A DNA stretch of 64,000 nt. Origin: Massalongia carnosa. Taxonomy: Eukaryota. The translations under genes and the position numbers were made by a program. The notes below the pieces were generated by a model. The model was not told the origin of the DNA and did not search any database. It worked only from the letters and a program-made list of their open reading frames with translations. Within the stretch, counting starts at the first letter, position 1, and each line of letters starts with the position of its first letter. Below are positions 2,436 to 63,095 of the stretch, piece after piece. Location of the stretch: assembly GCA_965645245.1 (NCBI GenBank), contig OZ287069.1, forward strand, positions 2,604,001 to 2,668,000, written 5' to 3'.

Positions 2436-3305
2436 TGTTAAATAAACAGTTGACGGCATAATGTTGAAATTACTACGGAGGTGACTGCTTATAGTAGTCA
2501 TGGCAGCCTGCAGGGCTGAGCTAGAACTAATGGGGCTAAGCGAGTATTCCAACACCCTTCGCCTCCAAAATTGAAACTATCCAGCTTTTATCACTCCCCT
2601 TGCGAAGTGATTCATCCAGCTGTGTCCGATTCGCTTCCCTTGCGGAACGAATCTAGCTCCCTCTGACTCCATTTTCCCTAAGCACGTAGTTCTTTCTTAT
2701 GTCTTTTGTTGTCCTGCTTTGTAGCCTCATTAAACCCATAACCATCTCTCGAAACGTAGCTTTTGTGAGTGTATGGGTGGATGGGAAGAGTACTATGGAC
2801 GTGTTTTATTGATGGCCTGAGCAGAGCTTTTCTCGATGTCTCTGTTAGACATTTTCCCGCAGACCATTGACGTTGGTGGCCTGATCGCAGGGCTTTTATC
2901 TCCCCTTGCTGATCTGACCAGTAATGCAAGATGTGAAGTCTTCGAGGCACCGCCCGTTGTAGATGTCCTCCTCAGCACGTTTCGTACGTACACCACTTTC
3001 GATGACGTTTCCGCTTCGTTTCCGCTTCATTTCTCATCCCTTTCGATGTCGTTTCCGCTTCGTTTTCGCGCTTTCCACGTCTGAACTTTCACCTCATCAT
3101 CTTCTTGATACGACATGATAGTACGTAGTCTATGCATGAAGGATGCCGTCGGAGGGGCGCAAAGCACAAACCCGGGACTCATAACCTGTTAAATAAACAG
3201 TTGACGGCATAATGTTGAAATTACTACGGAGGTGACTGCTTATAGTAGTCATGGCAGCCTGCAGGGCTGAGCTAGAACTAATGGGGCTAAGCGAGTATTC
3301 CAACA
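2436..3305 (-). mobile_element. TRIM-like miniature non-autonomous LTR retrotransposon with a Copia-type PBS
   Basis: Two identical 119-bp LTRs (2436-2554 and 3187-3305, TGTT...AACA). On the minus strand, PBS GGTTATGAGTCCC follows the 5' LTR and purine tract GGAGGCGAAGGG precedes the 3' LTR. Flanks are TTCTT/TTCCT. Absent from the right arm. Confidence 0.9.
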
Positions 3306-3346: not shown

Positions 3347-3854
3347 TGTCAGGCGATTAGGGGTCACATGACCCGCCATGGGTCACATGACCCACGAACC
3401 CCTATGAGATATCCCTCAGTTAGCTAGCCTAGACCTCCCATATATCAATACACACCACTCCTTTTCACCTATATTCCACATTAGCCCATACAGCTTGATA
3501 GTTATGAGCCCGGAGAGCATAGAAGCTTCAATTCCTACTCATTGATCTAGTTGAATAAAACCCTCTTCCCAAAACGATCCAACAAAACGATCAAAATGGA
3601 GGAGACCAACAAAGCAACGATGATCGCCCTAACTCCCAAGAATTATCATCTATGGATTAGGGAATTACAAGGAATATCCAAGAAAGCGAAGGTATGGCAA
3701 TATGTGGACCCCAATGGTTCAAAACCGGAGCCCGAAGAGGGAGAATATCCGGAAGTTTCACAATATCAAGTCCCTATTCAAGCACAGCCAGCAGGTGGAA
3801 TTGCTTACCCCATTATAGAAGGTGGAGTTGTAATAGCCACCAAATCGGCTGACA
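3347..3854 (+). mobile_element. Truncated Copia-like element (LTR, PBS and gag N-terminus) with 5-bp TSD
   Basis: Starts TGTCAG and ends CTGACA, with ATCAT duplicated at 3342-3346 and 3855-3859. PBS-like GTTATGAGCCC at ~3501. Gag-like LTPKNYHLWIRELQGISKKAKVWQYVDP from ~3596. Empty site in the right arm at ~30616. Confidence 0.8.
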
Positions 3855-4771
3855 ATCATTTACTGCTCAGCAATGCATAAATCGTTTTCTGAATGCACTC
3901 GTTTTGCGCTTGCCTGTTCCATTAGCTGACACATGAACCAATGCAGATGCGATGTGGAATGATGACTCAATTTTACAATTTCGTTGGTTAATACAGATAT
4001 CTGGGGCTTTCAGAGGAAAGCATTCATCTTCAACTCTCATCAAGCACCCTACTGTTTCAAGACGCACGGAACGACCTAGCCTACCGTAATGTGAACCGAG
4101 GTGTCCCGAAATCCAAACAGATACGCTGGAGAGTCTGCATTAATTAACATGCATATAAGGAGAGCAGAATGTTGTGCAGTTGAAACTCGGATATGCCCCA
4201 GCGTGAGCCACCCACGGCAGCGCATTCTTATATCATCTGATGCTTTTGCTGCGCATTATCACAAGTTTTTGGTACCGGAATAGCGGATCAACTAAAATGT
4301 TGTATGCAAACTACCGATAAGCCGTGGAAGTTGTCGATATGAAGCTTTTACATTAAGTTGGCATATACGCCTCCTGGCTATAGGGATTTTGAAGATGAAG
4401 TACCGACATGATGCTTGGCTGCATGTGTAGCTGTCTGTCTGGGTGGGGGTGGTTTTTGAAACTCTACCTACTCGATCGATTGCCAGATGAAAGCAGGCTT
4501 CTATGTTGAAAAATGACGAGAAACAATGAAGGCTTTAAATAGTTTGGCTATCCCACGTCCACGGTGAGCTTTTGATTGGAGGAAGTTGGCTTTGCCTCTC
4601 ATGTTTGCATCTAAGAAATGGCCTAATTATTTGCAGTCGTTTGGGGTATAAACCCACTTATAGGTGTGACCCTGCAAAATTGTCGCACAGTAAGTCTTGC
4701 TAGGGCCTGAGGCTGAGCTTTGACGAACTTGTAGGACGCCGGTGCCATCCAACCAAAAGCCTGTTCTTGCC

Positions 4772-4811
4772 CTTTCAGACTTTCAGGCTTTCAGGCTTTC
4801 AGGCTTTCAGG
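4772..4811. repeat. (CTTTCAGG)n short tandem repeat upstream of calpain
   Basis: Five units here (the first imperfect) versus four in the right arm at ~29665-29697. Confidence 0.85.
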
Positions 4812-5115
4812 CGTCCTATTGACGGAGCCGCATGAACAGCTCCCCTAGTGGTGGGCCAAGTGCGGCGACGTAGCTTCATGGATAGAGCACTAGAGATCTA
4901 CTAGTGAGTGTTTACTCTATATAAAGTCGTACATGATCCCCCGTTGAAACGGTTAACTAGCTATCACAAGAACACGCAAAGTATTTCGGCTACAGCTATT
5001 TCTCAATTCAGGCTTACTATTGTACAAATCATTTGCTGTATCAATATACATCTGCGAGGGTGATATAAAGCCGTCATCAAATTGACGCTGCGTGAACATC
5101 GCAGCAATCCGAACA

Positions 5116-8100
5116 ATGGACTGTCGTGCCGAAGCCCCCTCGAAGGCCACAGCGCCTGAACCCATAAACAAGGCGAAGAAGCGCGTACCCCAAGCGAACG
5201 TGGACGAGTTCTGGACCAAGTTCAATACCGCGTTTCCGGGAAAGGTGCACACGATCTTACCTAAAGACGCCTATGCCCGAGCAAAAGCTGCCAAAAATCC
5301 CAAGGGTGCGGTGCACAGTCAAGGAGCCGGAAAATCGTACGAGGAGGCATCGGCCGAATGCGTCGCTGCCGTCGAGAAGATTGCCGCCGAATGCCGACGG
5401 GTGAACCTCAAGTATAGGGACCCACACTTTGACATCGAATGGGATTTGAAGCGCCGTCGCCGCGACTGCTTGGATGGGTTGGTGTCGCGTGGCCGGGATC
5501 TCGCTCCCCGGTCGGTCAAACGTATTTCGGTATGAATTGGAATATCTTGCAGGCCCATAGCTTCTCGGGGATTTAACGGTCATTAGTATATATTCAATGA
5601 TCCAGTTTTCTACCAGGAAGGTGCTAGCGCCAGCGACGTGCGCCAGGGAGGGAATGGCGATTGCTGGTTTATGTCTGCGCTCTGTGCGCTGGGAAACAAA
5701 AAAAATCTCATCGACAAAGTTTGCGTGCATCGCGATGAGCAAGTAGGCGTGTACGGTTTTGTGTTCTATCGAGGTAGCAACAAGCATCTGAAGTGGTTGG
5801 AACGAATGAGGCTGACTTGGATTAGATGGGGAATGGATCCAAACGATTATTGATGACAAGCTATATCTCATTGCAGCTGATTTTGACGAAAGCGATGATG
5901 AAAAACGCATATGGCAAAAAGTCAGTATGCAAGATCCAGAGGAAGAATATCGAATATCATGCCAGAACGGCTCGCGTGCCCTGTTCTTTGCTCAATGCAG
6001 CAGCGAGAACGAGACATGGCTACCTCTGCTTGAAAAAGCATATGCTAAAGCCCATGGTGATTTTAACTCTATTCAAGGTGGATTTACTGGGTCCGCCCCT
6101 TCCCTCCTTCCCTCCCCTATCGAAACCTGTCGTCTTGCTTGATTATCAGCTGACAATTCCTAGTGAGGCCATCGAGGATCTAACTGGTGGAGTAACTACT
6201 GAACTTTTCACCTCCGACATACTCGACACGAACAAGTTCTGGACTGAGGAACTTTTAAAAGTCAACAAAGAGTTCTTGTTCAGCTGTTCGACTGGCATCT
6301 TTGATAATTGGCAAGGAACCGACGATGATACCGAACGTAGAGGTATCGAGCCAATGCATGCATACTCTATTATGCAGGCTAGGGAATTAAAGGGAGAAAA
6401 GCTGCTGCTGGTTAGGTCCGTTCGCTCATCTCTCTCGATGACGCTTCAGAGTCTGACGTTACTTTAGAAACCCATGGGGCAAAAGTGAATGGACCGGTCC
6501 TTGGAGCGACGGCTCTGAGCAATGGACACCGGAGTGGATGCAGCTTTTGGGTCATAAATTTGGTGATGATGGCGTAAGGCTTATCCTGGAGAAGCGTTAG
6601 ACCGGTAACTGATGCATACAGATGTTCTGGATCTCGTACAAAGATCTTCTACGCAAGTATCAGTGCTTTGATCGGACTCGGCTTTTTGGAAACGAATGGA
6701 ATATTACACAGCAATGGACGACGATAGACGTACCTTGGTCGGCCGACTATAGTGACACTAAGTTTAGCATAACACTCATCAAGCAAAGCGCTGTTGTTAT
6801 AGTTCTATCCCAAGTAAGTGAATTCCCTGGTACGCTGAATCATGGGTTTAACCTTGATTAGCTTGATGACCGCTACTTCCAAGGACTGCAAGGGCAATAT
6901 TCTTTTTCACTGCACTTCAGGCTTCACAAAGACGGAGATTCTGACTACATCGTGCGGAGCCACGGTAATTATCTGATGAACAGATCTGTTAGTACAGATT
7001 TGGAATTGGATGCGGGCACCTATTCGGTCCTCATGAAGATTACAGCCAAGCGATGGACAGATAGATCCACTCCGGAGCAGGTCATCAAGAAAAATTGCAG
7101 AGATAAGCAGGACAAGCTGATACAAATAGGACTAGCTTATGACCTTGCACATGCAAAAGGGCAAATCAAGGAAACAGAGGGCGAGAAACAGCTACGCAAA
7201 GAGCGAGAAGAGAAGAAGAAAGCCGCTGAAAAAATCAAGTGGCGCAAGGAGTTCCGCGAGCAGAAGTTTAAACTGTGGCAGATCAACATAAAACAAAAGG
7301 CTCGGGAGAAGCGTCATGCGAGGAGGAAGGAAGAGCGGCATAGGAAAAGGACTGATGCTGCAAAAGCCGCAGTCGTCTCAGAAGGCTCCGCTACGGGAGG
7401 AGCCGCACACCCCGAATCTGATTTGACGCCGGAGAATCTAGCTGGAAGTGCTGCCCCTCCAAAGTATGATGCAGCACCCGATACTGCAGCTGCAAATGAT
7501 AGCAGCAATGCAGAGCAAGAGCCAACCCCCGCTAGCTCCCTTGAAACTAAAGCTCAGGAGCCCAGCTCTGAAGCTCAAGAGCCCAAATCTGAAGCGGCAG
7601 CACTACCATCACCTCCTGCTGAATCGATTTCCTTGGAGCCTACCCAGGACCCGACTAGCGAAGCCCCGATCGAAACATCAAGCGCCCACGAGCTTTCTCA
7701 AAAATTTCACGCTGCCCTCCAAGCCATTCCTTCTGTCCTAATTAACGGCAGCTCTGCTCCGGCCTTCGATCCCGCGCCCCCTTCAACTGCTGCACCTCCA
7801 TCCATAGCCGGTCCACCGGCTCTTGACTCGGACTACGATTCCGATGCCTCTTTTAACTCCTCCATCGATACTGATCTTGATTTCCCTTCTTCCCCCGTCA
7901 TCTCCCCCGCCGATATTGCAGTCCCAGCTGCAGCAGAGAATGACGATGAATACGCAGAATTTGAAAACGATCCATGGAACGCGGTGTGTGTGGTGGGACT
8001 GAGAGTCTACAGTAAAGACACGGAAATGTGTGTGGAGGTGGTGAGGCCCAAGGAAGATGATGAGTCGGAGTCGCCATTGGATGTGGATGACGTTAGCAAA

Positions 8101-8190
8101 GGAGCCAGCGGGGAGAAGGTGGAAGATCAGGTAGAGGAAGTTATAAAGAATCAGGCACAAGAAAAGGCTAAAGAAAAGGCGAATGAATAG
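5116..8190 (+). CDS. Calpain-like cysteine protease (CysPc domain, C2L-like domain, charged and low-complexity tail), copy A, multi-exon
   Basis: Catalytic motifs RQGGNGDCWF (Cys), MHAYSIM (His) and RNPWG (Asn), plus WLPLLEKAYAKAHG, EDLTGG and W.GPWSDGSEQW. GT-AG introns join the ORF pieces. Confidence 0.92.
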
Positions 8191-8508
8191 TCAGAGGAGA
8201 CACGTGATAGGAATGTCAGCGTTGGGATAAACAATTGTTGGAAAATTATTGAGGTGAGATTGCGACGATAGGATGGAGTAGCGATTAGTATGGAAGGTCA
8301 AAAGCTGTAGGAACCGTACGAGTCTATTCGCCTTGTATCATGGTTGAGTCGTTTACTTCTAAGAAGTAGAACAAAACAACCTAGCGCATTTTTAGACAAA
8401 TACATTGTTGGATGTTAGAGACGTCTTAGCCTGCATATATCCATCGCGTTGAGTCCCTGAGGATAGAAAATGGGACTTGAAGGATAGCTCGCCGCATTTA
8501 ACGCGTAT

Positions 8509-17403: not shown

Positions 17404-17523
17404 GACGCTTCCCAAGCTTATATAACCCAAAGTGTCGAGTTTTAAAAATGTATTAGTATATAAAATTTTATCAACAAAATATCTACGAAAACCGTGGGGA
17501 TAATCACCGAGCGAAGGAACAAC

Positions 17524-19005
17524 ATGAACGCTGAATTCGAAGAATCGTTCGTGGTCGCGCACACGCAGCAGAGAGATTATCTGCTGGACAAGATAAATGA
17601 TTATCTTGTAAGAATAGGAGATGAGGGTGAACCGGAGGGGACCATGGTCCTGCAGGAAGTGAAAAATTTTCTCGAAAATCAGAGAAATTTCGACAACGAC
17701 AACGACGATGACAAGACGTCGAAGACTCTAAACGTCACGTTAACAGAAATCCAGAAAAGCCTTGCTCGCATCGAAGGAGCAAAAGCAGTCACAACAAACT
17801 CGGATAACTACGCAGCCGCTGCCACCATAGGCCAGGCCGCTCAAGCCCCACCGGTCCCACGTCGCACGAAGCCAACTGCACACTTAAAGCACACCGAGCC
17901 CTCGCCTCAAGAGATTCGAAAGGCCAGGGAAATAACCATCGTCGTCCCGAACACAATAGACAAAGAAAAACTAAAGAACGTGACAACAAAAGATCTCGTG
18001 GAGACACTACAACGTGAGACGAAGGGGATTCGGGGAATATCACGTCTCATGAGCGGAGATCTCAAGATTCATACCGAATCTTTAGAGGCCAAAAAGCTCC
18101 TACAAGAGAAACCGGAGTGGGTTCAAATTGTAGCCGAATCAGCCGCGATAAAGACACGAACGTACTCTATCAGGGTAAATGGTGTCAAGGTCGAAAATAT
18201 CAAAACCGCCAACCAATCGCAGGCTATAGAGTACCTACAGGCCGCTAACGCACGTCTGCACCCGAACCTGAAGATCAAGAAAATAGCCTGGTCCGTCAAA
18301 GCTATAAGGGAAAAAAAGACGTATTCTACGCTACATATGGAAGTCGCAACCGCCGAAACGGCCAACCGGATCATAGCCGAAGGCCTTGTGGTCGACTATG
18401 AAATCAAAGATTGTGAAAGGTTCACCAAGGGATGTACCATGACGCAATGCTTCAACTGTCACAAATACGGTCACATAGGTCGCTCATTTCCAAATCCTAC
18501 CGCCTGTGGCCACTGCGCCGGGGACCATCCCAGCACCGAATGCAACATGGAAACGACGGGTAGATACCGAAGATGTGCTGCATGCAGTGAAAAAGGCCAT
18601 GAAGCCTGGTCCACATCCTGCGAAATCAGGAAATCGGAAAAACGCAAAGCAGACAAGGCTATGCAAAATCGGGTTCCGTTTTATCCAGTCGCTGTCCCAA
18701 CACCAACAGTGTTTAGATTTCAAGAGGAAACAACAGTCATAAATTCAACCGATACAAGCAGCAAAAAACGAAAGACCGCACCCCCACCAGGTTCACCGCC
18801 GATTCCCCCTAAAATCGGAATCACATGGGCGGACACGGGCATCATGAATCCAGAGAACATGACAAAAGCTCTTGCAAAACCAGTTGTAGGCAGACCCCCA
18901 ATCAGGCCGCGAGACGAGTCTACAGCTCCGATTACGCCTAGCTCCAACGCATCAATCAGCGCCGTTTCCTCGACTTCTCAGGTCGAAATCATGGACGTCT
19001 TATGA
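17524..19005 (+). CDS. LINE ORF1 (gag-like, three zinc knuckles)
   Basis: CFNCHKYGH, CGHCAGDH...C and CAAC...GH...C. The stop overlaps the ORF2 ATG (ATGA at 19002-19005). Confidence 0.9.
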   Translation: MNAEFEESFVVAHTQQRDYLLDKINDYLVRIGDEGEPEGTMVLQEVKNFLENQRNFDNDNDDDKTSKTLNVTLTEIQKSLARIEGAKAVTTNSDNYAAAATIGQAAQAPPVPRRTKPTAHLKHTEPSPQEIRKAREITIVVPNTIDKEKLKNVTTKDLVETLQRETKGIRGISRLMSGDLKIHTESLEAKKLLQEKPEWVQIVAESAAIKTRTYSIRVNGVKVENIKTANQSQAIEYLQAANARLHPNLKIKKIAWSVKAIREKKTYSTLHMEVATAETANRIIAEGLVVDYEIKDCERFTKGCTMTQCFNCHKYGHIGRSFPNPTACGHCAGDHPSTECNMETTGRYRRCAACSEKGHEAWSTSCEIRKSEKRKADKAMQNRVPFYPVAVPTPTVFRFQEETTVINSTDTSSKKRKTAPPPGSPPIPPKIGITWADTGIMNPENMTKALAKPVVGRPPIRPRDESTAPITPSSNASISAVSSTSQVEIMDVL

Positions 19006-22000
19006 GGGATAAAAATTCCCTCTCTATATTGCAGTATAATGTCAGAAATGACAGAGTAAGTACTATGCTACCTCTCTTAGCAGACCCGAACACTCAGGAC
19101 TACGATATCATTGCTATTCAAGAACCCTGGCGTAATCCCTCAGCTCTCACCACATTAAGTCCTCATCAAAGCGGCTTTCACCTACTATACCGCCCGAGCG
19201 GAGAAACAAGAGTATGTTTCTATATTAGTGACTCAATTGACCCTGATAGCTAGGAAGTAAAATTTCCATCACCCGACATGTGCACGCTAATAATTCGCAC
19301 AAAAATTGGAGAAACGTCAGAAGTAATTCATATTCACAACGTGTACAACCCTTCTCCCGCCTCTTACTCCTCCGTAGACTGTCCGTCCACTCTACCAACC
19401 GTGAAACGTCAATTAACGGCAGGCGTAAAACACGTCTTATTAGGGGATTTCAATTTACATCATCCTCTTTGGAACGACTCAACGAGAACAACTCAACATG
19501 CGAGTGCAGATCAGCTGTTAGACGTGATTGAAGAAGCTAACCTTTCACTGACATTACCAAAAGGCACCATGACCTGGGAGGCAAGACAATCGTTCAGCAC
19601 TATCGATCTTGTATTCATGTCGGACGACCTAGTCGCGAGACTAGAACATTGCATGTCAAGACCTGAACTTAATCAATCGTCCGATCACATATCAATCTCA
19701 ACTCGAATAACGCTTAACAGTGAGCCTCAAACAATTGTTGAACGCAAGGCCTAGAAGCGGGTAAACATGGAAAAATTGAGGGAAGCCGAAAAACGGGCTC
19801 CCCTTCCGTTCTCTCCCCGATCTCCGGACGAAATCGAAGCCTACACGATAACGATTCAAGAATTCCTTCAAGAAGTCATAAACGCTACTGTACCATGGGC
19901 AAGACCCAGTAAGTACGCCAAGCCCTTTTGGAATGATGAATGCAGTGTAATCACGAAAGAAACTCGCAGGCTTAGACGCGCCTGGACGAACTCCAGAGAT
20001 CTTTCAGATTGGATAACGTACACGAAGTCTAATCATTCAAAAAGCCAAGAGACTGTCGTTCCGCAAGGAAATAGAAAAAGCTACTGAATCGCCTATGGAA
20101 TTATGGCGGCTGGCTAAGTGGGCGAAGGACAAAAGTGAGAAGCCAAGAGAAATTCCAAAAATGCCTAGCCTCACCCGAGACGATCAAATAGCTTCCACGT
20201 TCGAGGAAAAAACGGAGATGCTGAAACAGAAATTCTTTCCACCTGCACCTCCTGCCGATCTCAGCGACATAGAGGGCTCCTTTTATCCTAGTCCTCCTCA
20301 CTGTCCCACAATCGTAACCAGATCGGAAGTAACAGAATCGATACGCCGACTCAAGCCCGACACGGCCCCTGGTCCGGACGGAATAACCAACAGAATTGTA
20401 AAGGCGTGCTCCGAAAAGCTGTCCGATTTACTAACTCCTTTGTTTCAAGCATGCATAGATCAGGCGTATCATCCACGCGCGTTCAAGACCGCAAACACAA
20501 TCACACTGGAAAAGATAGACAAAGATGATTATACGGCTCCGAACGCCTATCGTCCTATAACACTCCTGAACACGCTTGGCAAGGTTATGGAATCCATCAT
20601 GTCCAAGAAAATCACCTACATAGCGGAAACACACCGACTTCTACCCGATACCCAGATGGGTGCCAGAAGAGGAAGATCAACAGAAACTGCACTGGAATTG
20701 TTAACGGAACAAATCCACACAGTATGGGGACAAGGCAACGACAAAGTAGCCACTCTGTTGAGCATGGACGTAGCAGGAGCTTATGATACAGTGTCACATA
20801 GACGTTTAATCCATAACCTGCGCAAACGGAAAATCCCAAAATGGATTACTGACTGGGTAGACAGTTTTTTAAACGAACGAAGTACCACGCTAGCAATACA
20901 TAGCCGAGTCACAGACATATTCGAAGTAAGAACCGGAATACCACAAGGCTCTCCTATTTCTCCTATCCTCTATCTTTTCTATAATGCAGACCTACTAGAC
21001 ATATGTCAAAGACCCGGAACCAACACGAGCGCCATAGGTTTCGTAGATGACATAAACGTGTTAGCATATGGGAAAAGCACGGAAGAAAATTGCAAAACGT
21101 TGGAGGAAATTCACAAGAAATGCGAAAGATGGGCCATTCGGCACGGATCGGTTTTTGCACCGAAAAAGTACGAACTAATACACTTGTCAAGAAATCCGAA
21201 GAAATTTAACATGACTGCTGTTGTTAAGATAGAAAACAGCATCATTAAACCAAAAACAGACATTAGAATCTTGGGACTCCGAATCGACACCAAATTGAAA
21301 TGGGGTCCACATATCAGAAAGATTCAGGAAAAACTGACAAAACAATCCAGGGCACTGACAAAAATTTCTACCTCCACATGGGGCGCCACCTTTCCAAAAG
21401 CCCGCCAGATATACACCGCTGTAGTTCGCCCGGCCATAACGTATGGTTCTACTATATGGCACATGCCAAAGGATATAAAAAAAATCGAACGGCATCTCAA
21501 ACAAGCTAGCCGTCATACAGAATAAATGCTTACGAACTATAGCTGGAGCATTTAAGGCGACCCCAATAGCGGTATTGGAAGCAGAAACGTACATAGCTCC
21601 TATTGACATACATCTAGATCAACTTCAGACGCAGGCTAGACATCGCTTGTGTCAGGGAGGTCAAAAGAAATTCATCATCAATGCATGCAACTCTATTGCA
21701 AACAAACTCAGAGGCCGGGCTGGACGCAAACGAGCTCCTGCGAGTACCCCGGGAATGCTGAAACACGCATGGGCCAAGAAAATAATATCGGACACATAAA
21801 ATCGCGTCGCCGGTAGCGCACCCACCATGGGCCGAACCCCCCCCGAATACAGCTCGAGAAATTGAAGAGGCGCGGGCGGCTCAAGGTAAAATAACCGCAA
21901 AAATAAAAAAACGATATATAGACGCATGGCAGACCTCATGGAAAACATATCAGAATCGCACATCTACGCCTACTCCAGCACAGGCAGCCCCACTAACCAA

Positions 22001-22343
22001 AAAACGCATCAAATTACACAAAACTCTAGCCAAAGCAGAAAGCGCTCTAACTATCCAGATACGCTTAGAAAAGATAGGCCTAGCCGACTTTCTATTTAGA
22101 CGTCACGTCCCCGACGTCCTAACACCAAACTGTCCATGTGGCTGGCCGAAACAAACCGCGAAACATGTAATCATGTTTTGCAAACTTAACAGCAACAGAC
22201 AGTCAATGTTACGTTCTATAGGCACAAACAACTATCGACTAATTACCGACTCATCCAGAGCGATGAAACTAGTCACCGCTTGGTTAATGAAGACCGGCTT
22301 ACTGACTCAGTTCTCAATGACAGCACAGCATTTATATCATTGA
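19002..22343 (+). pseudogene. LINE ORF2 (APE endonuclease, RT, CCHC), disrupted
   Basis: ILQYNV, IAIQEPW, LLGDFNLHH, TIDLVF, SDH; RT motifs GIPQGSPISP and FVDD; CPCG...HVIMFC. TAG stops at 19251 and 19752, frameshifts near 20033 and 21480. Confidence 0.92.
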
Positions 22344-26162: not shown

Positions 26163-26286
26163 TAGACTCGTACAGTTCATACAGATACTAAGCGCTACTC
26201 CATCCTATCATCGCAATCTCACCTCAATAATTTTCTAACAATGGTTTATCCCAACTGCTGACATTCCTGTCACGTGTCTCCTCTGA

Positions 26287-29200
26287 CTATTCATTCGCCT
26301 TTTCCTTAGCCTTTTCTTGTGCCTGATTCTTTATAACTTCCTCTACCTGATCTTCCACCTTCTCCCCGCTGGCTCCTTTGCTAACGTCATCCACATCCAA
26401 TGGCGACTCCGACTCATCATCTTCCTTGGGCCTCACCACCTCCACACACATTTCCGTGTCTTTACTGAAGACTCTCAGTCCCACCACACACACCGCGTTC
26501 CATGGATCGTTTGCAAATTCTGCGTATTCATCGTAATTCTCTGCTGCAGCTGGGACTGCAATATCGGCGGGGGAGATGACGGGGGAAGAAGGGAAATCAA
26601 GATCAGTATCGATGGAGGAGTTAAAAGAGGCATCGGAATCGTAGTCCGAGTCAAGAGCCGGTGGACCGGCTATGGATGGAGGTGCAGCAGTTGAAGGGGG
26701 CGCGGAATCGAAGGCCGGAGCAGAGCTGCCCTTAATTAGGACAGAAGGAATTGCTTGGAGGGCAGCGTGAAAATTTTGAGAAAGCTCGTGGGCGCTTGAT
26801 GTTTCGATCGGGGCTTCGCTAGTCGGGTCCTGGGTAGGCTCCAAGGAAATCGATTCAGCAGGAGGTGATGGTAGTGCTGCCGCTTCAGATTTGGGCTCTT
26901 GAGCTTCAGAGCTGGGCTCCTGAGCTTTAGTTTCAAGGGAGCTAGCGGGGGTTGGCTCTTGCTCCGCATTGCTGCTATCATTTGCAGCTGCAGTATCGGG
27001 TGCTGCATCATACTTTGGGGGGGCAGTACTTCCAGCTAGATTCTCTGGCGTCACATCAGATTCGGGGTGTGCGGCTCCTCCCGTAGCGGAGCCTTCTGGG
27101 ACGGCTGCGGCTTTTGCAGCATCAGTCCTTTTCCTATGCCGCTCTTCCTTCCTCCTCGCATGACGTTTCTCCCTCCCCTTTTGTTTTACATTGATCTGCC
27201 ACAGTTTAAAATTCTGCTCGCGGAACTCCTTGCGCCACTTGATTTTTTCAGCGGCTTTCTTCTTCTCTTCTCGCTCTTTGCGTAGCTGTTTCTCGCCCTC
27301 TGTTTCCTTGATTTGCCCTTTTGCATGTGCAAGGTCATAAGCTAGTCCTATTCGTATCAGCTTGTCCTGCTTATATCTGCAAGTTTTCTTGATGACCTGC
27401 TCCGGAGTGGATCTATCTGTCCATCGCTTGGCTGTAATCTTCATGAGGACCGAATAGGTGCCCGCATCCAATTCCAAATCTGTACTAACAGATCTGTTCA
27501 TCAGATAATTACCGTGGCTCCGCACGATGTAGTCAGAATCTCCGTCTTTGTGAAGCCTGAAGTGCAGTAAAAAAGAATATTGCCCTTGCAGTCCCCGGAA
27601 GTAGCGGTCATCAAGCTAATCAAGGTTAAACCCATGATTCAGCGTACCAGGGAATTCACTTACTTGGGATAGAACTATAACAATAGCGCTTTGCTTAGTG
27701 AGTGTTATGCTAAACTTAGTGTCACTATAGTCGGCCGACCAAGGTACGTCTATCGTCGTCCATTGCTGTGTAATATTCCATTCGTTTCCAAAAAGCCGAG
27801 TCCGATCAAAGCACTGATACTTGCGTAGAAGATCTTTGTACGAGATCCAGAATATCTGTCTATATTAGTTACCGGTCTAATGCTTCTCCAGGATAAACCT
27901 TACGCCGTCATCACCAAATTTATGATCCAAAAGCTGCATCCACTCCGGTGTCCATTGCTCAGAGCCGTCGCTCCAAGCACCGGTCCATTCACTTTTGCCC
28001 CATGGGTTTCTAAAGTAACGTCAGACTCTGGAGCGTCATCGAGAGAGATGAGCGAACGGACCTAACCAGCAGCAGCTTTTCTCCCTTTAATTCCCTAGCC
28101 TGCATAATAGAGTATGCATGCATGGGCTCGATACCTCTACGTTCGGTATCATCGTCGGTTCCTTGCCAATTATCAAAGATGCCAGTCCAACAGCTGAACA
28201 AGAACTCTTTGTTGACTTTTAAAAGTTCCTCAGTCCAGAACTTGTTCGTGTCGAGTATGTCGGAGGTGAAAAGTTCAGTAGTTACTCCACCAGTTAGATC
28301 CTCGATGGCCTCACTAGGAATTGTCAGCTGATAATCAAGCAAGACGACAGGTTTCGATAGGGGAGGGAAGGAGGGAAGGGGCGGACCCAGTAAATCCACC
28401 TTGAATAGAGTTAAAATCACCATGGGCTTTAGCATATGCTTTTTCAAGCAGAGGTAGCCATGTCTCGTTCTCGCTGCTGCATTGAGCAAAGAACAGGGCA
28501 CGCGAGCCGTTCTGGCATGATATTCGATATTCTTCCTCTGGATCTTGCATACTGACTTTTTGCCATATGCGTTTTTCATCATCGCTTTCGTCAAAATCAG
28601 CTGCAATGAGATATAGCTTGTCATCAATAATCGTTTGGATCCATTCCCCATCTAATCCAAGTCAGCCTCATTCGTTCCAACCACTTCAGATGCTTGTTGC
28701 TACCTCGATAGAACACAAAACCGTACACGCCTACTTGCTCTTCGCGATGCACGCAAACTTTGTCGATGAGATTTTTTTTGTTTCCCAGCGCACAGAGCGC
28801 AGACATAAACCAGCAATCGCCATTCCCTCCCTGGCGCACGTCGCTGGCGCTAGCACCTTCCTGGTAGAAAACTGGATCATTGAATATATACTAATGACTG
28901 TTAAATCCCCGAGAAGCTATGGGCCTGCAAGATATTCCAATTCATACCGAAATACGTTTGACCGACCGGGGAGCGAGAGCCCAGTCACTCGACACCAACC
29001 CATTCAAGCAGTCGCAGCGACCGTCCTTCAAATCCCATTCGATGTCAAAGTGTGGGTCCCTATACTTGAGGTTCACCCGTCGGCATTCGGCGGCAATCTT
29101 CTCGACGGCAGCGACGCATTCGGCCGATGCCTCCTCGTACGATTTTCCGGCTCCTTGACTGTGCACCGCACCCTTGGGATTTTTGGCAGCTTTTGCTCGG

Positions 29201-29361
29201 GCATAGGCGTCTTTAGGTAAGATCGTGTGCACCTTTCCCGGAAACGCGGTATTGAACTTGGTCCAGAACTCGTCCACGTTCGCTTGGGGTACGCGCTTCT
29301 TCGCCTTGTTTATGGGTTCAGGCGCTGTGGCCTTCGAGGGGGCTTCGGCACGACAGTCCAT
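26287..29361 (-). CDS. Calpain-like cysteine protease, copy B
   Basis: Same exon structure and intact Cys/His/Asn motifs as copy A. No stop or frameshift seen on manual comparison. Confidence 0.9.
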
Positions 29362-30663
29362 TGTTCGGATTGCTGCGATGTTCACGCAGCGTCAATTTGA
29401 TGACGGCTTTATATCACCCTCGCAGATGTATATTGATACAGCAAATGATTTGTACAATAGTAAGCCTGAATTGAGAAATAGCTGTAGCTGAAATACTTTG
29501 CGTGTTCTTGTGATAGCTAGTTAACCGTTTCAACGGGGGATCATGTACGACTTTATATAGAGTAAACACTCACTAGTAGATCTCTAGTGCTCTATCCATG
29601 AAGCTACGTCGCCGCACTTGGCCCACCACTAGGGGAGCTGTTCATGCGGCTCCGTCAATAGGACGCCTGAAAGCCTGAAAGCCTGAAAGCCTGAAAGGGC
29701 AAGAACAGGCTTTTGGTTGGATGACACCGGCGTCCTGCAAGTTCGTCAAAGCTCAGCCTCAGGCCCTAGCAAGACTTACTGCGCGACAATTTTGCAGGGT
29801 CATACCTATAAGTGAATTTATACCCCAAACGACTGCAAATAATTAGGCCATTTCTTAGATGCAAACATGAGAGGCAAAGCCAACTTCCTCCAATCAAAAG
29901 CTCACCGTGGACGTGGGATAGCCAAACTATTTAAAGCCTTTATTGTTTCTCGTCATTTTTCAACATAGAAGCCTGCTTTCATCTGGCAATCGATCGAGTA
30001 GGTAGAGTTTCAAAAACTACCCCCACCCAGACAGACAGCTACACATGCAGCCAAGCATCATGTCGGTACTTCATCTTCAAATCCCTATAGCCAGGAGGCG
30101 TATATGCCAACGTAATGTAAAAGCCTCATATCGACAACTTCCACGGCTTATCGGTAGTTTGCATACAACATTTTAGTTGATCCGCTATTCCGGTACCAAA
30201 AACTTGAGATAATGCGCAGCAAAAGCATCAGATGATATAAGAATGCGCTGCCGTGGGTGGCTCACGCTGGGGCATATCCGAGTTTCAACTGCACAATATT
30301 CTGCTCTCCTTATATGCATGTTAATTAATGCAGACTCTCCACCATATCTGTTTGGATTTCGGGACACCTCGGTTCACATTATGGTAGACTAGGTCGTTCC
30401 GTGCGTCTGGAAATAGTAGGTTGCTTGATGAAAGTTGAAGATGAATGCTTTCCTCTGAAAGCCCCAGATATCTGTATTAACCAACGAAATTGTAGAATTG
30501 AGTCATCATTCCACATCGCATCTGCATTGGTTCATGTGTCAGCTGATGGAACAGGCAAGCGCAAAACGAGTGCATTCAGAAAACGATTTATGCATTGCTG
30601 AGCAGTTAATGATCTATTGCGGTAAAGACTTAATGGAAAAGGAAAGAAGATGGACTTAGGAGA

Positions 30664-30939
30664 TGTTGAAATAGGTATATGACTATGGCTATATGGCTAT
30701 GTAATAATAAAGGTATGTATGACCGTGATTAAGGATGAAGAGTTGCTAGGCAGCAATATTTTCCTATTACTGGTCACCCCCTTCTAAGCGAGGTGATCTT
30801 ATCTTATCTTGGGATTAGTTAAGCCTAATGCGGCATCTACGGTTTCCGTAGATGATCTGTCCATCTAGGGCAGCCGTAGGTGCTATGTTCATCGTACTGA
30901 TAGGTGTTCATTGTGCTGGTAGGAATTGGATATTCAACA
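30664..30939. mobile_element. Solo LTR (276 bp) with 5-bp TSD
   Basis: TGTTGAA...TTCAACA termini, with GGAGA duplicated at 30659-30663 and 30940-30944. Empty site in the left arm at ~2407-2411. Confidence 0.9.
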
Positions 30940-31804
30940 GGAGAATTACACAAGTACGAAAAGCGCATGATAACTCATTATGATCCAAACATGTGACAAA
31001 ATTCTTTGAGCGCCCTAACTACTCTTAGAGACTTGGGAGGTTGCGAACCGGGTAAATGAGGAAGTGACAAAAACCGAAAGAAATGCAAGCGATAAGGGAA
31101 ATACTCTAATTGCGTGTCAAGTGAAGATGACCGACGATCGTTGGAGGTGATCTACACACATGATGCTCCGGAACGGTGTCGCAGCCTGACCAGAAACTCG
31201 GAAGGATCTTAAGAGGAAAATGTGATCGAGAATGCGCGTTGCAGACATGGGCACGCAGTTCAGTAATGAAATGACATAACTCTTCTTCAAAACTCCGCAC
31301 AAGGCAGAAGCATCAATGAAAAGATAGGCCTCGTAAGAGAATGCAAACAAAAATTGTGCCTGATGAGGGACCCGAAAGCCACTCAATGACTTCCGCCACC
31401 GCGTTGTGCAATGCAGAGCAGTGAATCATAGAAGACCGCCTTCTTGATCGCGGTCTCTCCGAAGGTAAGTATGAAGAAGAAGTAGAATTGATATTTTAAA
31501 GTATTCGGAATGCACTACCCTGGTGCAGCTGCACGCCGTATGGTCACCGTAGGGGTCAGGCTTTTTGCAAATAGTAGTAATTTAGCAACATACATTTAAT
31601 TCAATTATATTATGCCAGTTCAAAGGTGAGGTCGTGAAGTGAGTCCATCGTTGGCCAGAAAGGCAGCCACCCCGAATAGGCTTAGTTTAATACAATAAGG
31701 CTAAGTCACTAACATCAAAAAAATTTACCCCTTTTTTTCGCGCGTATCCGTGTTCGCTCAAATTTTTACCCACCACCTTTGAAAGTTCATAATCCACCAC
31801 CATC

Positions 31805-61524: not shown

Positions 61525-62355
61525 TAGCTTCGGCACTAGTCTGTGGTTTCGAGGAATATGCCATCACTATCACCAAACCGAGACACCCAAAAAATGCCCA
61601 GCTCCGAGTCTAACCACTCTCTATTCCTTACTAGATAAGTCGAGACACTTCACACAATGCCCCTTTTAAAATCCTAGGCACCCTACTGGCTGCAGTGAAT
61701 GCTCTCATTCCGAAACTTGCTCATGACTCCGAGTTATCACCAAATTCACCATATCATAAGACTAGGCCAACACTAATTTATCCGCTCCTCGTCCACTACA
61801 AATATCCTTCTTTCCTCCCTTCATCTCTTCTTCTTCTTTCTTCCCTTCCAACCCACAAGAGTTTCTCGTATCCGTCACTTTCTAGTTTTTAAATCAGAAA
61901 GAAATCAAAGGATATTATCTCTCTTTTACCCATTCCCTATCAAACTAGCTTGCCATTCATTCTAAAAACCGTTTAGCTTTCTTGCTGTCGGCCTCTCAAG
62001 CTTGGTTGATCGCCTTCTTCGTCCAGATCCAAGGGTTCAACTCTCTAAAAATATTATACTCCCCTCATTTCTCACCTAAAGACTTGTGTGGTCTCGGCTA
62101 CTACCTCCTTTCGCACTTCTTACCTTCGGACACACCTTGAGCACATAATTACCTTGTCTTTGTCGCGTCCTTCATCCAAGAACGAGCTGTCGACCTTGAG
62201 CTATCGTTGATCCCCTTCTCCATCAGGATCTAAGTCTTTACCCGTCGCCATAGATACCTTGTGCTCTTTACCTCCTCCCCTATCTCTTCGAAATCGAAAA
62301 CCTTCACATTCGACCTCGATATTACCTCGCATCGCCTTCAGTCTACCTCATAAAC

Positions 62356-63030
62356 TTAGAATTTGTCGTATTTGATTCTTCTGGTCATAGAAGAATTCGA
62401 GCTGGCATCTATAGAGTTTACCGCATTCTTAGCATTTGCTTTCTCTTGATTCTTTTGGTCATAAAAGAGCCAGAGTTAGCATTTACAGAGTTTGCGAGAC
62501 AGAACAAGCTTGGTTGTTTCCAGATCTTGTCTTACGCATTCTTAGCATTTGTTGCGACTTGGTTCTTTTGGTCATAAAGGAACTTGAGCCAGCATTTACA
62601 GAGTTTGCAGCATTCTTAGCATCTGTTTCCTCTCGATTCTTTTGGACATAAAAGATCGGGGTTAGCAGTTACAGAGTTTGCCAGACGCATTCTTAGCATT
62701 TGTCGCGATTTAATTCTTCTGGTCATTGAGGAATTCGAGTTCGACATTTACAGAGGTTGCAGCATCCTTAGCATTTGTTCTCTCTCGATTCTTTTGGTCA
62801 TAAAAGAGTCAGAGTTAGCATTTACAAAGTTTGCTAAAAAGAACGGATTCACTTCTTTTTAACTCTCGACATATGCATTCTTAGCATTTTTTGATTCGGT
62901 TCTTTTGGTCATAGAAGTATTCGGATCGATATTTACAGAGTTTGCAGCATCCTTAGCATTTGTTTTCTCTTGATTCTTTTGGTCTTAAAAGAATCAGGGG
63001 TCAACATTTACAGAGTTTGCTCGAGAGAAC
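62356..63030. repeat. Degenerate tandem array of ~74-nt units with higher-order structure
   Basis: Core GCAT(T/C)CTTAGCAT(T/C)T at 62423, 62536, 62610, 62687, 62762, 62875 and 62947, plus a partial unit at ~62356. Each core is followed by TTCTT(T/C)TGG(T/A)C and ATTTACAGAGTTTGC variants. Confidence 0.9.
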
Positions 63031-63095
63031 GGACTTACTTATTCTCACATCAATATTTCATGGGATCTTTTCGCCGCCGGGAGCTGTTAGGAACC

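Follow-up and report, generated by a model that had tools for sequence, protein, structure and literature searches.

A narrow peak of divergence among three young, near-identical calpain genes of Massalongia carnosa

Organization of the calpain locus

The stretch of DNA considered here, referred to as the window, comprises 64,000 nt of the Massalongia carnosa genome (assembly GCA_965645245.1, contig OZ287069.1, positions 2,604,001 to 2,668,000) and contains two calpain genes, copies A and B, that lie within duplicated blocks of opposite orientation (Table 1). A first-pass annotation, made from the letters of the window, described these genes as calpain twins; a search of the genome instead recovers three intact copies, the third of which (copy C) is found 12.6 kb before the window. 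Besides these three matches, the search yielded one distant calpain with a PalB-type layout at G000:C3:1127060, which we take to be the PalB calpain, and no fourth close copy was found in the genome. All introns of copies A and B are of the GT-AG type and the frames are open over 914 codons, and no stop, frameshift, splice lesion or catalytic lesion was found in any of the three copies. The residues Q158, C164, H354, N374 and W376, which represent the Cys-His-Asn triad of the CysPc core, the oxyanion glutamine and the tryptophan that follows, are kept in A, B and C.

The exons score above the PF00648 cut-off and the protein aligns to chain 1TL9 and others, which places it within Peptidase_C2. 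The triplicated gene groups with other proteins named 'calpain-like' and was not found to be an ortholog of PalB/Rim13 (calpain-7). Non-PalB calpain-like proteases of the Pezizomycotina (PF00648, for example in Aspergillus) possess the same core, beta-sandwich, long helix and acidic tail, and these proteins share 47-60% identity with P0001 of Pseudocyphellaria over nearly the full length. A CDC28 neighbour is likewise present in L024, one of five metagenome loci, and in P0022, where kinase and calpain form a fused gene model; this shared adjacency indicates that copy C marks the ancestral site beside CDC28. The N-terminus of copy C is 15 nt longer and different (window 5123-5143; L008:3392-3420), and C-like N-terminal forms both with and without the 15-nt insertion are encountered in sequencing run X4.

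Copies A and B also carry an upstream segment that matches the upstream region of a NAD-kinase gene, a locus 360 kb beyond the window. Over 784 nt this segment provides a neutral clock, with divergences of 3.2% between A and the donor, 4.1% between B and the donor and 2.2% between A and B. The chimeric upstream region as a whole (3855-4639, 2100-2436 and 29830-31265; donor L030:1501-2686, which is G000:C3:3024415-3025600) is made of about 1.2 kb of donor copy, 92-97% alike and in the same orientation, and about 430 nt of native calpain upstream sequence; the borrowed region may have changed the regulation of A and B.

A and B are surrounded by DNA transposons and by LINE-like elements, several of which are related to one another (68-70% alike); such related elements are found in both orientations between the calpain copies, in the upstream 40 kb (L004-L007) and in the window at 35-1903 and 17464-22343, and may have helped the duplications. 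A solo-LTR-like element of about 509 nt (3347-3855), bounded by TG...CA and an ATCAT target duplication, is present upstream of copy A only and has more than 35 matches at 94-100% among 40 candidates scored. Also upstream of copy A is an exact 119-nt direct repeat (2436-2554 and 3187-3305); an 8-nt tandem repeat (CTTTCAGG-like, 4772-4811) in the upstream region differs in copy number among A, B and C, and near the window end (62355-63043) there are degenerate tandem repeats with 65-81% similarity. An alpha/beta-hydrolase (PF07859, 45629-46663) is 30-35% similar to a domain that is fused to calpain in four Aspergillus gene models, a resemblance that suggests an old linkage of the two.

Table 1. 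Coordinates of the calpain copies and associated features (window positions unless prefixed by G000)
Feature	Position	Strand	Remarks
Calpain copy A	5116..8190	+	914 aa, 7 exons; exon model inferred from splice signals and homology, not RNA
Exons of copy A	5116-5529, 5587-5773, 5826-6090, 6164-6415, 6468-6573, 6622-6813, 6862-8190	+	
Calpain copy B	26287..29361	-	914 aa; exon structure as copy A
Calpain copy C	G000:C3:2591392-2594480	+	919 aa, intact; outside window, directly after CDC28
Duplicated block A	3855..8326	+	97.6% identity to inverted block B
Duplicated block B	26163..30613	-	Inverted duplicate of block A
Upstream segment of A and B, from NAD-kinase gene upstream region	3855..4639	+	Donor G000:C3:3024415-3025198
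Homogenised tract before patch	4989..5451	+	A vs B, 0/463 nt
Patch of copy A, RRRRDCLDGLVSRGRD	5452..5499	+	Codons 113-128
Patch of copy B, DGRCDCLNGLVSSDWA	28978..29025	-	Translation of 29025-28978
Homogenised tract after patch	5500..6288	+	A vs B, 2/789 nt
Catalytic Cys164 codon of copy A	5662..5664	+	36 residues past patch
Second divergence island	6570..6617	+	Intron 5 and one silent site; 7 A/B differences/48 nt
Third island, codons 607-622, coiled coil	7266..7311	+	7 A/B differences, silent and amino-acid-changing mixed

A divergent patch between homogenised flanks

Within exon 1, a 48-nt patch differs between copies A and B by nine substitutions, none of which is silent, so that 8 of 16 residues are changed; these counts were given by the first-pass annotation, and retranslation of both copies returns the same figures. 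The corresponding patch of copy C reads RGRRDCLNGLVSSDWD. The annotation had noted that about 450 nt ahead of the patch translate identically in two frames; the tract that precedes the patch is identical in A and B, and codons 13-112 are identical in all three copies; farther out, A and B differ at 24 of 1125 nt upstream and at 31 of 1112 nt beyond the tract that follows the patch. Under uniform scatter, nine differences within 48 nt have a P of about 2e-5 among the 47 coding differences and of 1.2e-4 among the 86 differences of the 4473-nt block (100,000 shuffles in each case), for a segment that was picked because it looked extreme.

The three copies are mosaics. Odd-one-out labels over 104 informative sites fall into 48 runs, where 68.9 are expected (0 of 20,000 shuffles), and the change D120N unites B and C, whereas by their flanks A and B belong together. 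The mosaic is attributed to gene conversion as the homogenising force. Conversion of the flanks had been put forward as an alternative to diversifying selection; the run count speaks for its reality, and the two proposals are best combined.

Several mutational sources of the patch were considered and set aside. The best inverted matches near the patch are only 3-7 nt long, no donor of the patch was found in 104 kb, and the best match elsewhere is a chance 12-mer inside CDC28, so a template switch or an outside donor was rejected. Folding of the patch region reveals no unusual hairpin (z +0.2 to +0.6 against mononucleotide shuffles), and hairpin mutagenesis was rejected on this basis; RIP was likewise rejected, as the C>T changes show no clear preference for CpA (12 of 39, with crude polarity). 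The patch is rich in CpG (6 against a mean of 2.7, within the top 5% of segments), and CpG transitions account for only two of the nine changes.

Further clusters of differences among the three copies are located in the beta-sandwich domain, at 7061-7102 (codons 539-553) and 6881-6908 (codons 479-488). Codons 538-553 hold 8 differences in 48 nt when counted over the three copies, and run X5 has a contig with 15 other letters at this cluster, beyond what any single copy explains.

Direction of change in the patch

The ancestral patch, as reconstructed from four outgroup proteins, equals the patch of copy C with D120, and is carried exactly by P0148. Derived changes in A are G114R, S125R, D126G and W127R, with the ancestral D120 kept; those in B are R113D (two nucleotides), R116C and D128A; and D120N is common to B and C. 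Four nucleotide changes are thereby assigned to the A branch, four to the B branch and one to the branch of B and C. As the changes fall on three branches, a single template switch, the event by which the first-pass annotation thought its own reading might be overturned, is excluded. The annotation had further read the A/B contrast as a loss of five arginines, whereas the outgroup polarity shows that A gained three and B lost two.

The patch has a net charge of +3 in A, -2 in B, 0 in C and -1 in the ancestor. Among 41 distinct patches of relatives the charge extends from -4 to +1, and the +3 of copy A is outside this range. All four changes in A raise the charge, for which the post hoc P is about 0.01, or about 0.008 allowing for GC bias. 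Derived residues are most numerous in copy B, where some of them (R116C, D188E, A619G, E840A) replace residues that are invariant elsewhere; 15 of 52 variable residues are derived solely in B, including several in invariant columns (8 unresolved, tail noisy).

Probable position of the patch beside the active site

The annotation correctly assigned the patch to the start of the protease core, and alignments put it at a loop next to the active site. The alignment of K135-R136 to C164 with K61-C90 of chain 1TL9 is free of gaps; with the catalytic cysteine of calpain-1 numbered 115, as in the available part of PMC6271145, extrapolation from this alignment makes the patch equivalent to calpain-1 residues 64-79. 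A folded model of the relative P0029, which is about 71% identical over residues 21-640 and has a mean pLDDT of 70.8, displays the calpain protease-core fold (residues 80-432 against calpain-1 33-353; Z 32.5, rmsd 2.7, 304 aligned), and here the patch corresponds to calpain-1 residues 69-84 and forms a coil that follows a short helix, with pLDDT 70-86. Both registers overlap calpain-1 loop 69-82. Since HMMER leaves the patch itself unaligned to calpain-1, the loop position is derived from the anchors on both sides of the patch, which together point to a probable surface loop of the first core subdomain, beside the cleft.

Loop 69-82 of calpain-1 we take, partly after what Moldoveanu 2004 reportedly described, to be one of the two gating loops. 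In the parts of the sources available, it is named as one of two flexible loops of calpain-1 (PMC4350077), two flexible loops are said to gate the calpain active site, with loop variation hypothesised to confer specificity (PMC7001764), and variation in the PC2 loop is likewise thought to set specificity (PMC4391918); a modelling paper, again in its available part, places the domain-I gating loop at 96-108 instead (PMC6271145). The patch would thus resemble calpain-1 loops 69-82 and 251-261 in being a flexible cleft-side loop whose variation is thought to set specificity (PMC7001764 and PMC4391918, in part), yet in the fungus the segment has about 5 additional residues and no relationship in sequence. 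The CAPN5 G1 loop mutations that have been studied concern the other (PC2) loop, not the patch loop. In or beside the second loop, ahead of H354, the copies differ by S331W (B), D342E (C) and K351E (A and B), encoded at 6289, 6323 and 6348; K351E is a charge reversal three residues ahead of the catalytic H354.

Relatives and other samples

Variation among relatives was evaluated in 64 distinct exon-1 sequences of more than 70% identity (73 passed the filter, from 325 proteins fetched), with copy C included; among named relatives, Pseudocyphellaria aurata and Sticta canariensis come closest, which suggests a lichen fungus, probably of the Peltigerales, as host. The patch takes up 74 of 420 parsimony changes over residues 20-137 and is therefore only mildly variable in this set. 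Pairs with at least eight patch differences do occur (539 of 2016), and each has at least 16 differences outside the patch, against none outside for A and B. Positions 114, 124, 125, 127 and 128 vary among relatives, and R116 (63 of 64), D120 (63 of 64) and D126 (60 of 64) are kept, R116 and D120 also in 37 of 37 full-length matches. Apart from single shared residues, the A patch is absent from the exon-1 sequences of the 64 relatives, and a metagenome scan returned five distant loci (38-54% identity) and no close alleles.

Nine sequencing runs, none on record as RNA, were available, five of which contain the stretch; four of these (X1, X3, X4 and X5) were compared as contigs, which collapse the copies and so show the presence of versions, not their phase. 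All five A-type letters are present in X4 and X5, which stem from two further studies (2 of the 4 runs compared), and one A-type source run carries another organism label. X1 and X3 have B/C-type letters at the same five sites, and exon 1 of copy C is also found in a separate assembly (P0144). Among the rows listed there are no B-specific patch letters, and B-specific flank letters are present. In X4 the A-type patch is surrounded by C-like sequence and private alleles, which hints at a shuffling of versions between backgrounds; X1, X3 and X5 are compatible with a collapsed mixture of the three copies, and reshuffling of the patch was dropped as evidence.

Selection, relaxed constraint and other explanations

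How strongly the patch departs from neutrality depends on how its changes are counted. Taken alone, nine non-silent changes out of nine have P 0.05-0.08 under neutrality, and pN/pS between the copies over the whole gene amounts to 0.76-0.90 (0.92-1.09 when transitions are weighted), a sign of loose constraint along its full length. With the donor clock of 3.2-4.1%, the P for a 48-nt segment in which nine or more differences are non-silent and none is silent is 0.0005-0.004, which becomes 0.03-0.12 when the patch is counted as seven events; with neutral divergence as deep as that of intron 5 (6/48) the patch has P 0.04, and older alleles at the parent locus could have raised the true neutral background. 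Segments of 48 nt with seven differences are within chance at the same clock (P 0.29-0.71), and the second island serves as an internal control against reading every island as selection. Outside the patch, more differences than expected lie within 2 nt of each other (9 among 75, P 0.0007), which shows that mutations do cluster at this locus, and multi-nucleotide changes can fake positive selection (10.1101/165969, in the part available). Merging of neighbouring differences gives the patch P 0.0007 with a gap of 1 and 0.04 with a gap of 3, the latter being an over-merging that joins changes from different copies. The localized diversifying selection proposed by the first-pass annotation is upheld in one part: purifying selection is rejected at the patch, and for positive selection as against relaxed constraint with clustered mutation, P runs from 0.0005 to 0.12 with the way in which events are counted.

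The divergence peak in this young triplicate is real, and selection is likely to have contributed to it. In the proposed sequence of events, a conserved non-PalB calpain of filamentous ascomycetes gave rise to two further copies, which came to lie among transposons close to the original site beside CDC28; copy C is the parent and A and B are daughters with a borrowed upstream region, the order of events being conjectural. Ongoing gene conversion among the copies would keep the start of the protease core nearly identical, and selection would have favoured different loop versions and protected these from overwriting. With a loop that is strongly basic in A (+3 against -1 in the ancestor) and that lacks two arginines in B, the copies are predicted to accept substrates or partners of different charge. 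The outcome would be a peak of divergence that forms under gene conversion, here on a surface governing protease specificity, by analogy with the primate opsins. Diversifying selection on a specificity loop under conversion, in the manner of the opsins, is the preferred reading, although it could equally well prove right or wrong. Relaxed constraint is a quite possible, if somewhat doubtful, substitute: redundant A and B would evolve near-neutrally, clustered mutations would strike a tolerant CpG-rich loop and conversion would clean the flanks, leaving an island that looks selected. The loose gene-wide pN/pS (0.76-1.09) agrees with this, as do the excess of near-adjacent differences, the two other islands with 7 differences per 48 nt (one of them largely intronic), the five patch positions that vary among relatives, the P of up to 0.03-0.12 for seven events, and R116C and D120N, which alter nearly invariant residues as in decay. 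However, relaxation needs several independent clusters on three branches within the same 48 nt, and leaves the consistent direction of the charge change in A, the freedom of all three copies from inactivating lesions, the small share of CpG transitions and the want of a hairpin or template donor to be accounted for.

Two further readings carry less weight. The annotation had likened the patch to fungal allorecognition or immune proteases; patch versions would then be recognition types under frequency-dependent selection, with mismatch or cleavage of a partner leading to cell death. This is improbable, in spite of a narrow, radical and charge-changing divergence in a transposon-rich spot, an A version common to samples of two other studies, the hint of movement in the X4 background and the precedent of proteases as het determinants (PMC11138114, in part). 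Against it, three versions coexist on paralogs within one genome, and the absence of the A patch from the 64 relatives leaves nothing that points to old trans-species alleles. Neither the window nor the 40 kb upstream yielded a recognisable gasdermin, HET or NLR partner (Pfam on 11 window ORFs), although an unlinked partner or one of an unfamiliar kind may exist, and the word 'calpain' is absent from three papers on fungal gasdermins, cell death and immunity; an allorecognition or immune role of the patch is unsupported and held to be unlikely. That the patch stems from erroneous assembly or base-calling of GC-rich sequence, or from a single template switch, is highly improbable. The B version is known from this assembly alone, as B-specific patch letters are absent among the rows listed, but X4 and X5 contain the A version intact, B/C-type letters are found in X1 and X3 and the C version in P0144, and a switch is opposed by changes on three branches, by inverted matches of only 3-7 nt and by the 12-mer in CDC28 as the best match elsewhere.

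Comparison with known systems

Primate red and green opsins, as treated in the model of Teshima and Innan (PMC3924837, in part), are likewise nearby paralogs homogenised by conversion with a narrow amino-acid peak at a functional surface; in contrast, the present case involves three young copies (2-4% neutral divergence) and a 48-nt peak whose functional effect and fixation per copy are putative. Compared with other calpains of the Pezizomycotina, the locus stands apart in that its three copies are clustered, intact and recombining and show a peak of divergence in a loop, and no such case is present among the matches listed.

Proteases with sharply differing versions are known from fungi, namely the CHAT protease at hetB of Aspergillus fumigatus and, in Podospora and Neurospora, a serine protease that controls a gasdermin; each such set of versions occupies a single locus as alleles or idiomorphs, shows trans-species polymorphism and, in some cases, has a gasdermin partner (all from the available part of PMC11138114). 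The calpains, in contrast, come from another protease family; they are paralogs with 98% identity, and no partner of theirs was recognised. In Magnaporthe, calpains have effects on conidiation, sex and the cell wall (PMC4977516, in part). Searches on calpain with heterokaryon incompatibility, lichens, fungal cell death, Magnaporthe, gasdermin/NLR and positive selection returned no report of such a cluster, nor of a calpain in fungal allorecognition, within a literature that holds few subscription papers; term searches of the main texts of Peltigerales preprints gave no match (a count of 0 for 'calpain'), and the available parts of PMC13413365 and PMC12134995 add nothing on the calpain family.

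Implications

To our knowledge, the substrates of the widespread fungal calpain appear to be unknown, and the rules of calpain specificity are poorly defined. Three near-identical natural enzymes that differ mainly in one putative cleft-side loop (+3, 0 and -2) represent a ready-made experiment on loop function. A more far-reaching idea, and a long shot, is a calpain-based self/non-self or defence system in which loops of opposite charge are shuffled by conversion among copies and individuals under frequency-dependent selection, each with a differing partner or antagonist. If it were true, the cluster would add a new protease class to fungal recognition and offer a molecular handle on thallus fusion in lichens, and calpains would join fungal immunity if the recognition reading held. 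If selection is confirmed, the triplicate would provide a young example of paralogs that diverge against gene conversion in a lichen symbiont.
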